A stretch of DNA of 32,000 nucleotides from Acaryochloris marina MBIC11017 (GCF_000018105.1 NC_009926.1:270001-302000); one strand, 5' to 3'. Numbered from the stretch's first letter, positions 18,500-22,597 are shown. Numbers and translations: made by a program. The notes: a model not told the origin generated them from the sequence alone.

Positions 18500-21400
18500 C
18501 TAGACCGCCCAGGATTGCTTAAGCGTTGAATCTAACTGAGTCTTAGCCGCTAAAGTAGACCCGGCAGCCTCAAAAATGTCCCAAGCCTTAACCATGTCAT
18601 TGACTTGAGAACTCTGCAAAGAAGCTCCATTACTAATTTGGATGGTGTCAACCTGTTGGGATAGAGGCGTTGTATACCAGTCCTTGAGGATAACCACCTC
18701 ATTAGTGTCTGAAACATTGAGTTTGACATCATTGCCGCTTCTGGAGAAGTCAATGTTGTGGTAATCAACGTTAGCTCCTAATAGTAGCTTGTCCGTAGTG
18801 CTGGCATCACCTCTGTTGTCGATGGTAGTAGTGCGGGTGCCCCCAGGATTGGCTCCTAAAGAAGCTCCAAATGCATCCTTACCACCAATTTGGTAAGTGT
18901 CATTACCTGCACCACCTGTCAGAGTGATGTTGTTGCCGTAAGAAATCAGCGTGTCATCACCAGCACCCGCATCATAAGTGTTGGACTCACCGCCTGCATG
19001 GATGGTGTCCTTGTCTTGTCCACCCTGGATGGTGTTGTTCTTACCCGCACCGTAGATGCGGTTCAACCCACCCAAGCTCACAAAACTATTCTTGGCTCCT
19101 TTGACTAGGACAATGTCATTACCGGAACCGGACTTGATTTTATTTTCCTGACCGAGGCCAAGGATAATATCATCACCTTTGCCGCCGTCAAAGGTGTTCT
19201 TCTTACCAATGGCCAGGATAAAGTCATTGCCCTTGCCACCGATAAGCTTGTTTTCCTTACCGCCACCGATGAGGATGTCATCGCCTGCACCACCCTTGAG
19301 CACATTCTTTGTGCCACCGCCAATCAGGATATCCTTACCAGCGTCGCCTTTGAAGCTATTGGTCTTACCACCACCAAGGATGATGTCATTACCTTCGCCC
19401 CCCTTAAGCACATTCTTCTTACCAGCACCAAGGATGATATCGTCTCCCTGACCGCCCTTGAAGATGTTGGTTTTCCCAGCACCAAGGATAAGGTCATTGC
19501 CATCTCCTCCGAAGAGGAGATTCATTTTACCGCCACCGACGATGATGTCAGCACCTGCACCCCCTTTCATTGTGTTGGTCTTTCCTCCACCTAAGAGGAT
19601 GTCGTTGCCTTCACCACCTAGCATAGTGTTGAATTTACCAGCACCGACCATGATGTCGTTGCCTTTGCCACCGGATAAAGAGTTCACTTTACCGCCGCCA
19701 ATCACAAGGTCATCACCAATCCCGGCAAGCATTTTATTAAGCTTACCGCCGCCCACCATGATGTCATTGCCAGCTCCGCCCATCATGGTGTTGAGCATAC
19801 CGCCACCAATCATGATGTCGTTGCCATCTTGGCCCATCATCATGTTGAACTTACCGCCAGCCAGCATCAGGTCGTCGCCTTGGCCACCTTTTAAGAAATT
19901 GAACTTACCGATGGAAGCTTGGATGTCATTTCCCAGTCCACCATCCACCACGTTGACCTTCCCGCCAGCGACCTGGATGTCATCGCCTTGGCCACCCGAT
20001 AGGAAGTTCACGGCCCCCAGTGTGACTTGTACATCAGCACCATTGCCGCCAAAGAGCGCGTTGGCTAAACCATGAGAAAATTGAATATCGTTGCCTTTGC
20101 CGCCAAGAAGGAAGTTTGCTTCTCCCAGTGCAACCATGGTGTCACTGTTGGCACCGTGGCTATAGAGATTGAAGTTTGGAAGGGTTAGATTGGGGAGTTT
20201 AACGGATTGAGCGACACTATTGGCTTTATCCTTCAGGGTTCGTAAGGGATCTGGAAGAGTAACAGAAGGGATAGAGGGTAGTGACGGTAACGACGGCAAA
20301 CTCAGGGCTGGAATATTGAGCGTTGGTAGCGTTACCTGAGGCACAGGAATGGAAGGAAGGCTTACCGTGGGGATGTTGATAGTCGGGAGGCTCAAGCTGG
20401 GAATGGTCAACTGAGGTAAACCAATGTTGGATGTGGGCAGTCTCAAGCTGGGAATTAAGTGACCAGGTAGGTTTATGGACGGCATCTGAATGGAAGGTAG
20501 TTGCACATTCTTGAAGCCAGTAACCTTAAAGTCAAACCCAGGGAAGTTCAACCCCCCTTCAGGAGCATCGATAGATAAATCAGGTAAACCAGGTAACTTG
20601 ATGTCAGGAGCATTCAAGGAGATTTTCAAATTGCTCAAGTTGGGCAGTTGACCAATATTGAAGTTAGGGGCCTTAAAGTTTGGAATGACATCACCTAGCT
20701 CACTAAAGTCAGCGGCAAATTCTTTGAAATTTGGGAGACTGAAGTCTGAAAAATTTAATTTTGGTAGGCTGGCATCAGAGAGCTTAAGCGAACCCAGGTC
20801 TAGATCTTCAGCCATTTTCTTGAGGGTGTCTTTGCCGACGGTATCGCCCGCCATGGCGTTTGCCTTACCCAATGCAACCATTACATCTTGGCCTTCGCCA
20901 CCGACTTGCACATTGAGGGCAGCAGCGCTAACGAGGATGTCATTTCCTGCTCCACCGTTTAAGTAGTTGGCCGCACCGAGACCGATCATGATGTCGTTAC
21001 CACCAGCGGATGTGAGCCAGTTCCCAGCTGCAACACCGACCATAATGTCACGACCATTGCCGCTATGGAGTTTGTTGAGTCCGCCGAAACCGATGACGAC
21101 GTTGTTGCCATCACCAGCATTAACAACGTTGGCACCTCCGACACCGATGATGGTGTCATTGCCAGTACCAGAATTGATGACGTTCGCTCCGCCTAGGCCG
21201 ATGACGGTGTTGCGACCATGACCAGCATTGATTTTGTTAGCCCCACCAAATCCGAAGATAAAGTCGTTGCCATAGCCAGCGTTCATGTTGTTGTAGCCAC
21301 CCACCCCTACTAAGGTGTTGTGACCGTGGCCAGCATCCATATTGTTGTAGCCACCTACAGCAATCAGGGTGTCGTTACCCCAACCGGCTGTCAAACGGTT

Positions 21401-22597
21401 GTATCCACCCGCTGCTATAAGGGTGTTATGACCTTCATTGCCATGAATGGTGTTCTTCCCACCGACTGCTACGACTTTGTCATTGCCAGAGCCCGCATGG
21501 ATGGTGTTGGAAGCGGCAGCAGTTGTGATGTGGTCATCTCCTGAACCGCCGTAAACAGTATTACCAATACCGAAAATTTCGATGCGGTCGTTCCCAGAAC
21601 CTCCATCAACAAAGTTAGAGCCACCAAAGGCTTTGATATGATCATGGCCCCACTCACCATAAAGCCGGTTTCCAGCAGCAACGGCCTCAATGTAGTCATT
21701 GTGACCACCGCCGTATACGGTATTGTGAGCTCCCCAGACTTTGATGTTGTCATAGCCATCTCCTCCGTGTACATAGTTGGAACCACCCCCTGCACGGATA
21801 GTGTCATTGCCCCACTCGCCCCGGATGGTGTTGCGACCGCCCCAGGCTTCGATATGGTCGTTGTGCCCACCGCCATAAACGGTATTGCTAATGCCACCAA
21901 CTACGATGTTGTCGTGGCCGTCACCACCGTGGACCCAATTGGAACCACCCCAGGCACGGATCGTGTCATCACCCCATTCACCTCGGATGGTGTTGCGGCC
22001 ACCCCAGGACTCGATGTAGTCGTTGTGGCCGCCACCATAGACAGTGTTGTGAGCTCCCCAGACTTTGATGTTGTCGAAGCCATCGCCACCATGAACCCAG
22101 TTGGAGCCACCCCCTGCGCGGATAGTGTCATTGCCCCACTCACCGTGAAGGGAGTTGCGACCGCCCCAGGCAACGATGTAGTCATCGTGACCACCACCGT
22201 AGACAGTATTGCTGATGCCACCGACCTCAATGTTATCGTTGTGGTCGCCACCGTGGACCCAATTGGAACCACCCCAGGCACGGATGTAGTCATGGCCGCT
22301 ATCTCCACGGACGTTGTTTCGACCGCCAATGGCATGAATCTCATCGTTGCCTGTGCCGCCACGCATGGTGTTCTGGCCACCGATGGCATGGAGGTAATCA
22401 TTCCCACTACCACCATCTAAGGTATTTTTCCAACCCACAGCTCGGAGGGTGTCGTTGCCGCCATGACCATAAAGATAGTTGACGGGCATATATCCGATCA
22501 GGGTGTCATTGCCCCAACCACCGTGCTTGGTGGGTGAAGGTGCAATTTTCTTAACGACTTTTACAATTGCCTTAATGGGATTCTTGGGCTTACCCAT
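18500..22597 (-). CDS. Giant RTX-like Ca2+-binding repeat protein, presumed T1SS substrate (1365 aa)
   Basis: About 55 units of an 18-aa bipartite repeat, with canonical GGxGxDxUx alternating with xxGGxNxxx. A central Pro/Leu-rich linker separates two repeat blocks. The C-terminal ~125 aa is non-repeat ('DKLLLGANVDYHNIDFSRSGNDVKLNV..VVILKDWY') and typical of RTX C-termini. AAGGAG Shine-Dalgarno lies upstream of the ATG. Confidence 0.9.
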   Translation of the reverse strand: MGKPKNPIKAIVKVVKKIAPSPTKHGGWGNDTLIGYMPVNYLYGHGGNDTLRAVGWKNTLDGGSGNDYLHAIGGQNTMRGGTGNDEIHAIGGRNNVRGDSGHDYIRAWGGSNWVHGGDHNDNIEVGGISNTVYGGGHDDYIVAWGGRNSLHGEWGNDTIRAGGGSNWVHGGDGFDNIKVWGAHNTVYGGGHNDYIESWGGRNTIRGEWGDDTIRAWGGSNWVHGGDGHDNIVVGGISNTVYGGGHNDHIEAWGGRNTIRGEWGNDTIRAGGGSNYVHGGDGYDNIKVWGAHNTVYGGGHNDYIEAVAAGNRLYGEWGHDHIKAFGGSNFVDGGSGNDRIEIFGIGNTVYGGSGDDHITTAAASNTIHAGSGNDKVVAVGGKNTIHGNEGHNTLIAAGGYNRLTAGWGNDTLIAVGGYNNMDAGHGHNTLVGVGGYNNMNAGYGNDFIFGFGGANKINAGHGRNTVIGLGGANVINSGTGNDTIIGVGGANVVNAGDGNNVVIGFGGLNKLHSGNGRDIMVGVAAGNWLTSAGGNDIMIGLGAANYLNGGAGNDILVSAAALNVQVGGEGQDVMVALGKANAMAGDTVGKDTLKKMAEDLDLGSLKLSDASLPKLNFSDFSLPNFKEFAADFSELGDVIPNFKAPNFNIGQLPNLSNLKISLNAPDIKLPGLPDLSIDAPEGGLNFPGFDFKVTGFKNVQLPSIQMPSINLPGHLIPSLRLPTSNIGLPQLTIPSLSLPTINIPTVSLPSIPVPQVTLPTLNIPALSLPSLPSLPSIPSVTLPDPLRTLKDKANSVAQSVKLPNLTLPNFNLYSHGANSDTMVALGEANFLLGGKGNDIQFSHGLANALFGGNGADVQVTLGAVNFLSGGQGDDIQVAGGKVNVVDGGLGNDIQASIGKFNFLKGGQGDDLMLAGGKFNMMMGQDGNDIMIGGGMLNTMMGGAGNDIMVGGGKLNKMLAGIGDDLVIGGGKVNSLSGGKGNDIMVGAGKFNTMLGGEGNDILLGGGKTNTMKGGAGADIIVGGGKMNLLFGGDGNDLILGAGKTNIFKGGQGDDIILGAGKKNVLKGGEGNDIILGGGKTNSFKGDAGKDILIGGGTKNVLKGGAGDDILIGGGKENKLIGGKGNDFILAIGKKNTFDGGKGDDIILGLGQENKIKSGSGNDIVLVKGAKNSFVSLGGLNRIYGAGKNNTIQGGQDKDTIHAGGESNTYDAGAGDDTLISYGNNITLTGGAGNDTYQIGGKDAFGASLGANPGGTRTTTIDNRGDASTTDKLLLGANVDYHNIDFSRSGNDVKLNVSDTNEVVILKDWYTTPLSQQVDTIQISNGASLQSSQVNDMVKAWDIFEAAGSTLAAKTQLDSTLKQSWAV
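21632..22279 (-). repeat. Nested tandem repeat inside the RTX gene: two copies of a 324-bp (108-aa) unit, each made of two 54-aa halves and six 18-aa units
   Basis: Protein units AWGGSNWVHGGD..(54 aa) and AGGGSNWVHGGD..(54 aa) alternate A-B-A'-B' over residues 107-322. The DNA string gtggacccaattggaaccaccccaggcacggat recurs about 324 bp apart. Confidence 0.8.

Follow-up and report, generated by a model that had tools for sequence, protein, structure and literature searches.

A repeats-only RTX protein with MARTX-type 18-residue repeats and adjoining HlyC-family acyltransferase genes in Acaryochloris marina

Organisation of the locus

In this study we analysed an RTX gene that occupies positions 18500..22597 on the minus strand of a 32,000-nucleotide stretch of Acaryochloris marina MBIC11017 DNA (NC_009926.1:270001-302000), hereafter called the window. 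Its product of 1365 aa is the exact protein WP_012166780.1, which is annotated merely as 'calcium-binding protein'. All genes and features described below lie on the same strand: two genes for HlyC-family acyltransferases stand directly upstream, and genes of a type I secretion system (T1SS) stand just downstream. Our analysis revealed that the protein is composed of almost nothing but 18-residue repeats of the MARTX type, which is its unusual point.

WP_012166780.1 is encoded on plasmid pREC3 (303 kb) of A. marina MBIC10699, a strain isolated from the ascidian Diplosoma similis in Palau; the plasmid is conjugative by typing. When the window was compared with the record NZ_AP026078.1, 5 differing positions were found across an overlap of 16,941 bases. 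The arbitrary origin of this circular plasmid record falls inside the window, with record position 1 at window position 15657, within the ABC transporter gene of the secretion system. Because the origin cuts this gene, the public record has the export genes at its far end.

Five regions follow one another in the protein. The N-terminal leader (residues 1-25, MGKPKNPIK..., 22523..22597) has the MG(K/R) start that is common to homologues and to MARTX RtxA. It is followed by the N array (residues 26-583, 20849..22522), made of 31 units of 18 residues, rich in Trp, His and Tyr and with Gly at position 13. A linker rich in Pro, Leu and Ser (residues 584-815, 20153..20848) leads to the C array (residues 816-1245, 18863..20152), where 23-24 units of 18 residues carry a G-K-x-N motif. 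The C-terminal domain (residues 1246-1365, 18503..18862) belongs to a generic kind of RTX-associated module (HCBP_related) and presumably contains the uncleaved T1SS signal. We considered this domain as a marker for the family and dropped it, as its 120 aa match 1307 representative clusters, often many times per giant protein.

In order to describe the domain content, Pfam and NCBIfam were scanned. The HemolysinCabind model (PF00353), a comparison proposed in the initial annotation, matched 28 stretches of the protein (E 8.1e-79; score 259 bits, cut-off 23). The sole further Pfam match was HCBP_related, sub-threshold, at residues 1290-1328, and NCBIfam gave partial matches below cut-off to the repeat portions of RTX toxins and serralysins. 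No effector, enzymatic, adhesin or cysteine protease domain was found in these scans, which returned RTX-repeat matches only. Nor was there a pore-forming hydrophobic segment, the highest 19-residue Kyte-Doolittle mean being 1.03, inside the Pro-rich linker. The initial annotation had stated that the protein has no enzymatic, adhesin-head or pore-forming domain, and both kinds of analysis agree with it.

Repeat structure of the two arrays

The repeat unit reads G-G-x-G-x-D-x-U-x-x-x-G-(G|K)-x-N-x-U-x, in short GGxGxD-x5-GxxN-x3. Residues 26-583 comprise 31 such units and residues 832-1245 comprise 23, or 24 if a degenerate unit at residue 816 is included; not a single insertion or deletion interrupts the 18-residue register in either array. 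At a lag of 18, self-identity was 0.44 in the N array and 0.47 in the C array, but at a lag of 9 it fell to 0.16 and 0.18, compared with 0.105 +/- 0.013 and 0.118 +/- 0.015, respectively, in shuffled controls. As self-identity is high at lag 18 and low at lag 9, the true period of both arrays is 18, not 9, and far above chance.

Asp occupies position 6 in 27/31 units of the N array and 22/23 of the C array, and Asn occupies position 15 in 31/31 and 21/23, respectively. Gly at position 12 is found in 26/31 and 23/23 units. At position 13 the arrays diverge: 18/31 units of the N array have Gly, and 15/23 units of the C array have Lys. The overall composition differs as well: the N array contains 18 Trp, 28 His, 21 Tyr and 9 Lys, whereas the C array contains no Trp, 2 His, 4 Tyr and 36 Lys. 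Periodicity and composition together bear out the initial description of an RTX protein with a bipartite unit of strictly 18 residues, arranged in two arrays that differ in composition, and its coordinates, unit counts and composition were accurate. The linker between the arrays has 232 residues (17% Leu, 14% Pro, 11% Ser), with 32 prolines arranged in 'xLPxx' pentads.

At the DNA level, Tandem Repeats Finder detected periods of 54 nt and 108 nt in the C array. In the N array it detected super-repeats of 162 nt and 324 nt at 21683-22416, corresponding to residues ~61-305. These are repeats of 54 aa and 108 aa: the shorter comprises three units (162 nt; 4 copies with 75% matches), the longer six (324 nt; ~2 copies with 83% matches). 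This higher-order repeat would indicate a fairly recent tandem duplication within the N array.

Relation to the MARTX C-terminal repeat

In MARTX toxins, the repeats at the C terminus follow the 18-residue consensus X(V/I)XXGXXNX(V/I)XXGDGXDX, with a G-7X-GXXN core (Linhartova et al., PMC3034196). We found that the unit of the window protein fits this consensus residue for residue, and that RtxA of the V. vulnificus plasmid pC4602-2 (4595 aa) has the identical unit type at residues ~4225-4445. In direct BLASTP alignment, the C array matched V. vulnificus RtxA residues 4227-4505 in register, with 33% identity over 279 columns (E 6e-26), and the N array matched residues 4235-4434 (E 1.8e-17). 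Overall, alignments of the arrays with RtxA showed 30-35% identity over 200-280 residues. Because of both the consensus fit and the direct alignment, the bipartite 18-mer is the already known MARTX C-terminal repeat type and not a novel one.

Predicted fold

To obtain structural models, AlphaFold2 (AF2) was run on residues 1-640 and residues 760-1365. The models are Ca2+-free and were built from shallow alignments of 18-19 rows, consisting of window segments and mostly generic RTX proteins. The mean predicted local distance difference test (pLDDT) score was 87 for the N part, with values >90 over residues ~30-560, and 80 for the C half, with 90-98 over residues ~809-1239. Confidence was low in the linker and in part of the C-terminal domain. 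Both arrays are predicted to form continuous beta-roll-type solenoids, so that the structure prediction of each block, suggested in the initial annotation, gave the same answer for both (pLDDT 90-98).

DSSP assigned to each 18 residues of the models a strand, a turn of 2-3 residues, a second strand and a 6-residue loop. When this is mapped onto the sequence, the 6-residue loop corresponds to GGxGxD, the short turn to x-G-(G/K), and the invariant Asn opens the next strand. In the models each 18-mer is one full turn of the solenoid. Because the GGxGxD loop and the tight turn alternate once per 18 residues, all canonical Ca2+ loops are predicted to lie on one edge, and the opposite edge to be a tight turn without a Ca2+-type loop. 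The initial annotation had proposed that GGxGxD alternates with an Asp-less variant, and that only every second turn has a full Ca2+-binding consensus. The alternation holds. However, the variant is not a second loop of the Ca2+ type but a strand and a tight turn of 2-3 residues in the models, and geometrically one whole edge would carry Ca2+ loops and the other none.

A Foldseek search against the PDB matched the RTX domain of CyaA (7usl_C) at E 2.8e-6 and 1.6e-6. The best compact match to both models was the Marinomonas antifreeze protein MpAFP (3p4g), with a TM score of 0.44-0.50 on the target and a root-mean-square deviation of 5-7.6 A. At ~4.8 A per rung, we infer arms of ~15 nm (N) and ~11 nm (C), which would bind roughly 30 and 22 Ca2+, respectively. 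The position-13 lysines of the C array would stack as a ladder along the Ca2+-free edge, a geometry that was derived from the register and DSSP alone.

The upstream acyltransferase genes

Between the RTX gene and the first of the upstream genes lies a terminator-like hairpin (22775..22799). The gene that follows, hlyC-2 (22832..23368), encodes a toxin-activating lysine-acyltransferase of 178 aa with conserved Ser61 and His64. A second HlyC-family gene, hlyC-1 (23674..24090), encodes 138 aa as read here. Both products belong to PF02794 (E 1.1e-39 and 2e-39), are 57% identical to each other, and are 35-41% identical to RtxC of Xenorhabdus and Photorhabdus. The hlyC-2 product aligned with the structure of ApxIC (4whn) at E 1.5e-20, including the catalytic S-P-L-H-R motif. 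Ser61 and His64, the counterparts of HlyC S20 and H23, are >=90% conserved across 20 homologues, and the catalytic pair is intact in both copies.

The N-terminal extension of hlyC-1, which starts with an ATG at 24321, is interrupted in the window, where a CAA codon of NZ_AP026078.1 is changed to TAA at 24151-24153. The protein has 215 aa in that record, and the HlyC domain, read from the ATG at 24090, is untouched by the nonsense change. Because two HlyC-family acyltransferase genes sit directly upstream, acylation of the RTX protein is a genomic expectation and not just a guess from a motif.

Recurrence of the cassette in other genomes

When protein databases were searched for orthologues, the queries with the complete sequence and with its C half were both swamped by generic RTX proteins and gave no close orthologue. 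Family loci were reached through the HlyC neighbour, by scanning a HlyC alignment against GTDB species genomes, which returned 78 loci. In ~25 cyanobacterial loci, hlyC is directly followed by an open reading frame (ORF) of 1000-3100 aa that is built from this bipartite unit. Acaryochloris, Rivularia, Calothrix, Crocosphaera, Phormidesmis and Prochloraceae are among the sources of these loci. The architecture is kept throughout the family, with the MG(K/R) start, an N array, an LP-rich linker, a C array and a conserved C-terminal domain.

We then compared the residue two before the Asn in ~22 non-redundant members. Before the linker it is Gly in 200/334 units and Lys in 24/334, whereas in the 280 units that follow the linker Lys occurs 126 times, Gln 47 times, Glu 32 times and Gly 8 times. 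Because Gly before the linker is set against K/Q/E after it across these members, the division into two compositionally distinct blocks is a trait of the family.

Two hlyC genes are present in each Acaryochloris locus examined (the window, A. marina NIES-2412 and Acaryochloris sp. IP29b), and in LEGE 11480 three flank two RTX genes; the other cyanobacterial loci mostly have one. Outside the cyanobacteria, the bulk of the scan hits were RtxC genes of Xenorhabdus and Photorhabdus (35-41% identity), followed by giant MARTX rtxA genes. Slightly closer HlyC proteins were found on single contigs of Novispirillum (45%) and of Phaeodactylibacter, Oceanobacillus and Rhodovulum (40% each). Three proteobacterial homologues show the two-block plan: a Herbaspirillum-like betaproteobacterial protein, followed by two hlyC genes, and two alphaproteobacterial proteins, each with one hlyC nearby. 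For a Gly-only 18-mer RTX protein (P0063), no hlyC was found within 8 kb.

Two features of relatives are missing from the window protein. Units of a B type, 'TKVG(D/N)G', occur in relatives such as LEGE 11480. Towards the end of their N array, most family members also have a conserved insert of ~45 residues, 'FGDSLGI..ETKNAGKDAKTDEI..GVDWENAGNVD', in which A-G-K-D is invariant; we saw it in the RTX ORFs of eleven loci. By alignment, this insert with its 'NAGKDAKT' loop is absent from the Acaryochloris proteins, including that of the window. The A-G-K-D insert of the relatives is a candidate for a classical acylation loop.

A side observation concerns the contig of Oceanobacillus sp. HTM 045, labelled as a Firmicute, which carries hlyC and an 18-mer RTX gene at 9755-13927. 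This pair could reflect contamination or horizontal transfer.

Export genes and the shared upstream element

The export operon downstream of the RTX gene consists of three genes. The first (17127..17879) encodes a parvulin-type peptidyl-prolyl isomerase (PPIase) without a signal peptide. It is followed by a HlyB-type T1SS ABC transporter (14173..17130) with an N-terminal cyclic nucleotide (cNMP)-binding domain and a C39-like domain, and by a HlyD-type T1SS membrane-fusion protein (12590..14176). The transporter passes the HlyB-type model TIGR01846 with 739.5 bits against a cut-off of 725.55, and the membrane-fusion protein falls just below TIGR01843 with 206.8 against 208.65. The adjacent T1SS on which the initial annotation had counted is therefore present as a HlyB-type transporter and a HlyD-type adaptor. 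The window contains only one ABC transporter gene and no TolC gene.

We considered the T1SS, the PPIase and the cNMP-binding transporter as conserved partners of the cassette and rejected them, as they are not beside it in other loci. The cNMP-binding domain covers residues 37-122, ahead of the C39-like domain, and suggests that secretion may be gated by a nucleotide second messenger. It was also observed that the Pro-rich linker with its 'xLPxx' pentads is conserved family-wide, while a parvulin-type PPIase heads the exporter operon. That the cytoplasmic PPIase might act on the 32-proline linker is speculation.

Upstream of hlyC-1, hlyC-2, the RTX gene, the PPIase-ABC-membrane-fusion operon and a further operon for DUF928 and CHAT proteins, we detected a shared element of ~60-80 nt, ACCTGAA..CTGAATAAA..GGGATTTTATCT....GATAGTRG, with 11 matches against 0.71 expected. 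The copy before the RTX gene, CCTGAA..CTGAATAA..GGATTT, lies at 22687..22714, and further copies lie at 23475-23492, 24427-24444, 24635-24662, 18259-18286 and 31472-31499. The element is kept at orthologous sites in A. marina NIES-2412 and Acaryochloris sp. IP29b. It is probably a common promoter or regulator site, which would place the CHAT, hlyC, RTX and exporter genes in one regulon.

No sizeable ORF follows the copy at 24635-24662. About 55 nt past it, a hairpin CCCCTAGT-12 nt-ACTAGGGG (24552-24579), followed by TTTTCTTATTT, was read by eye. Element copy and hairpin together (24552-24662) may represent a small RNA or a leader, or else an orphan promoter followed by a terminator.

The remaining operon, upstream of the hlyC genes, encodes a protein of 1774 aa with a TPS (two-partner-secretion N-domain), TPR and CHAT regions (24691-30015) and a DUF928 protein (30066-31037). 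TPS and TPR-CHAT proteins, there split in two genes, recur beside the hlyC-RTX cassette in seven other family loci, including that of Acaryochloris sp. IP29b.

Acylation of the protein and alternative explanations

Taken together, our results lead us to lean slightly towards the view that this is an effector-less, MARTX-type 'repeats-only' RTX protein, and a substrate both of the two upstream HlyC-family acyltransferases and of the T1SS. According to this proposal, the chain would be unfolded in the low-Ca2+ cytoplasm, where HlyC-1 and HlyC-2 would move fatty acyl groups from acyl carrier protein (acyl-ACP) to at least one Gly-preceded lysine, most likely among the G-K-x-N lysines of the C array. 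The HlyB/HlyD-type exporter would secrete the chain C-terminus first, together with an unlinked outer-membrane channel. Extracellular Ca2+ would then bind at the GGxGxD loops and fold each array into a long rigid solenoid, with one turn per 18-residue unit; the Ca2+ loops would occupy one edge, and the tight x-G-(G/K) turn the opposite one. In the resulting protein, an aromatic-rich N arm of ~15 nm and a Lys-rich C arm of ~11 nm would be connected by ~230 residues of flexible, Pro-rich tether, which occupies the place of the effector domains of MARTX toxins. Through the acylated or cationic edge of its C arm, the protein would attach to a membrane or an anionic cell surface. As a speculation, the N arm, with Trp, Tyr and His at positions 3, 11, 16 and 18, may form a flat binding surface, perhaps for polysaccharide.

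Gene context makes the protein very likely a HlyC substrate. Among the loci recovered through HlyC, acyltransferase genes adjoin the RTX gene in every family locus, and the K/Q/E block co-occurs with hlyC. The initial annotation had noted that Gly precedes the acylated Lys, which holds for both sites of E. coli HlyA (K564 in RRQSGK, K690 in VSVGK). For HlyA and CyaA it is established that acylation takes place on the unfolded chain, so access to the G-K lysines would be no problem. These lysines of the C arm are the best acylation candidates in this particular protein, and acylation of the G-K-x-N ladder is plausible. Up to eight consecutive Lys rungs occur in the C array with no acidic partner at position 13, and such a stack is electrostatically awkward unless the charges are neutralised.

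The strongest form of the acylation proposal is a poly-acylated C arm, in which the two HlyC paralogues decorate many of the ~15 G-K-x-N lysines, ~4.8 A apart on the Ca2+-free edge. We put this forward tentatively and regard it as unlikely. If it were true, the C arm would be a rigid rod with a continuous 'comb' of fatty acyl chains, whose lipidated edge might lie flat on a membrane or zip into it, a mode of protein lipidation and membrane attachment that is not known to be described for any RTX protein. By extension, the G-K-A-N lysines in the B repeats would then be indicated as the RtxC target sites in MARTX toxins. No primary report of RtxC acylation targets was found in PubMed Central or bioRxiv full text. 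Full-text searches likewise gave no literature on a cyanobacterial 18-mer RTX family or on MARTX acylation sites, and a search aimed at acylated MARTX repeat regions yielded only work on the acylated segment of CyaA.

Several observations count against acylation of the ladder and, in part, against the broader proposal. Across homologues the ladder position is K, Q or E, which fits a plain polar ladder equally well. Among Acaryochloris orthologues, individual ladder lysines are exchanged with Q, S, M or T; because of these exchanges no single ladder Lys is conserved, contrary to what a specific enzyme site would show. MARTX B repeats alternate G-K-A-N with G-E/D-A-N and thus resemble an ion-pair ladder. 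The '..ETKNAGKDAKTDE..' insert of most relatives is a better candidate for a site of the classical type, and the window protein does not have it. The acylated segment of HlyA (500-725) has no counterpart beyond RTX-like repeats, with E at least 0.004 for any member and 0.053 for the window protein. The case for acylation is one of gene context and motif. The T1SS adjoins the cassette only here among the family loci examined. Finally, the shallow alignments and Ca2+-free state of the AF2 models, and the derivation of the ladder geometry from register and DSSP, limit the structural argument.

Alternatively, acylation may be confined to one or two specific lysines, as in HlyA and CyaA; K589 in 'GDTVGKDTLKK', where the N array ends, is a candidate. 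In that case the ladder would serve as a polar or cationic stripe, exposed to solvent, which lends stability to the solenoid or binds to anionic surfaces such as lipopolysaccharide, sheath polysaccharide or membranes. The interchange of K, Q and E across homologues, the exchanges among Acaryochloris orthologues and the alternation of K with E/D in MARTX B repeats are all in line with such a stripe; classical toxins are acylated at two sites only, and most relatives have a single conserved 'NAGKDAKT' loop. The window protein lacks that insert, however, and its eight consecutive Lys rungs without an acidic partner would be unfavourable as stacked like charges unless neutralised. In addition, two or more acyltransferase paralogues have been kept in all three Acaryochloris loci, in LEGE 11480 and beside the Herbaspirillum-like homologue. 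We consider acylation at one or two sites possible, though doubtful. 'TVGK589DTLKK' was also examined as a counterpart of the 'NAGKDAKT' loop and rejected: by alignment, the Acaryochloris proteins are simply without the 45-residue insert.

A different explanation is that the protein is itself a membrane-active toxin, whose repeat arms bind and breach the eukaryotic membranes of grazers or of the ascidian host without any cargo. The homology of its repeats to those of MARTX toxins, which have been proposed to act in binding and translocation (PMC3034196), and the ascidian origin of the source organism would suit this role. The nearest non-cyanobacterial HlyC proteins in our scan also include MARTX RtxC (35-41%), beside those on single alphaproteobacterial, Bacteroidota and Oceanobacillus contigs (40-45%). 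On the other hand, the mechanism of the MARTX arms is itself unproven, the protein is devoid of a hydrophobic domain, and its family is spread widely among free-living filamentous cyanobacteria. A toxin of this kind is in our judgement improbable.

Least likely is a protein without any acylation that has a structural role at the surface or in an S-layer, or a role in motility, in the manner of oscillin, SwmA and Sll1951, with hlyC serving another substrate or persisting as a relic: the known roles of cyanobacterial RTX proteins as surface or motility proteins, the nonsense change in the N-terminal extension of hlyC-1 and the lack of a hydrophobic pore domain would allow it, but hlyC adjoins an RTX gene of the same architecture in ~25 cyanobacterial loci and beside three proteobacterial homologues, both copies retain the catalytic Ser and His, and the shared upstream element precedes all the genes.

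Collectively, the repeats-only protein with two acyltransferases and an exporter remains the reading we prefer. The initial annotation was largely right but incomplete: the repeat type was already known, and the acylation idea, which it had offered as speculative, is stronger than thought, with a credible structural alternative.

Comparison with known systems

MARTX toxins, which are important Vibrio virulence factors, are the closest known system. RtxA of V. vulnificus, V. cholerae, Photorhabdus and Xenorhabdus shares with the window protein the 18-residue C repeat with its G-7x-GxxN core, which aligns in register to V. vulnificus RtxA 4221-4505, and also a Gly-rich N-terminal arm, a C-terminal repeat arm, a C-terminal HCBP-like module and the MGK(P) start. 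In both, a HlyC/RtxC acyltransferase gene lies directly upstream, and MARTX B repeats also have the G-K-x-N motif of the C array. In a Photorhabdus rtxA gene (L061, 10442-20404) we observed B repeats at residues ~640-1330, with G-K-A-N alternating with G-E/D/G-A-N, the same motif as in the C-array ladder.

The differences are equally clear. The window protein has 1365 aa compared with 3200-5200 aa in MARTX toxins, and a Pro-rich linker in place of the effector domains and the InsP6-activated cysteine protease domain. Its N arm is made of the strict 18-mer, whereas MARTX toxins have A (20-residue) and B (19-residue) repeats there. Two acyltransferase genes stand against one, and one ABC transporter with a cNMP-binding domain stands against RtxB and RtxE of the four-component MARTX exporter (two in the V. 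vulnificus locus). The MARTX C repeats examined are without Lys at the position of the C-arm ladder. The repeat arms are thus related, but the defining effector, cysteine protease, A/B-repeat and two-transporter features of MARTX toxins are not found here.

With HlyA, CyaA and ApxI and their activators HlyC, CyaC and ApxIC, the window system has in common the GGxGxD repeats, an acyltransferase with conserved Ser and His, and HlyB/HlyD-type export genes. The acyltransferases of these systems are acyl-ACP-dependent, and in HlyA a Gly stands before the acylated Lys as it does before the G-K lysines of the window protein. Unlike these toxins, the window protein has no N-terminal hydrophobic pore-forming domain and no recognisable acylated segment, and for this reason we do not regard it as a pore-forming cytolysin. 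Its repeat period is 18, with the Ca2+ loops on one edge, compared with 9 in the cytolysins.

The best structural match, MpAFP region IV, is the Ca2+-dependent, beta-helical ice-binding domain of a Marinomonas RTX adhesin. It is a solenoid with a 19-residue period and one Ca2+ per turn on a single edge, and so a precedent for a long-period RTX-like solenoid. Sequence identity to the window protein is 17-22%. The two differ in the Thr/Asx ice-binding row, the acyltransferase genes and the Lys ladder, and region IV is one domain within a giant adhesin. Ice binding by analogy with MpAFP was considered and rejected, as the likeness does not go beyond the fold and the organism, an ascidian associate, is tropical. 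Oscillin, SwmA and Sll1951 are, like the window protein, Ca2+-binding repeat exoproteins of cyanobacteria (PMC3034196). They were compared by description, and no acyltransferase linkage is described for them in that review.

If the Lys ladder is not acylated, the protein would be an ordinary member of the large-RTX world. The models suggest a structural rule, by which an 18-residue period confines the Ca2+ loops to one edge and allows the opposite edge to evolve freely, giving the Gly arm and the Lys/Gln/Glu arm. In non-pathogenic cyanobacteria, lysine acylation of the HlyC type appears to be widespread. The window family may serve as a natural minimal MARTX, consisting of two arms and an acyltransferase without 2000-4000 residues of cargo, and at 1365 aa the RTX protein is small enough to express, to map by mass spectrometry and to solve. 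In summary, it is best filed with a family of MARTX-type repeat proteins that have no effectors, are linked to acyltransferases and are common in cyanobacteria.

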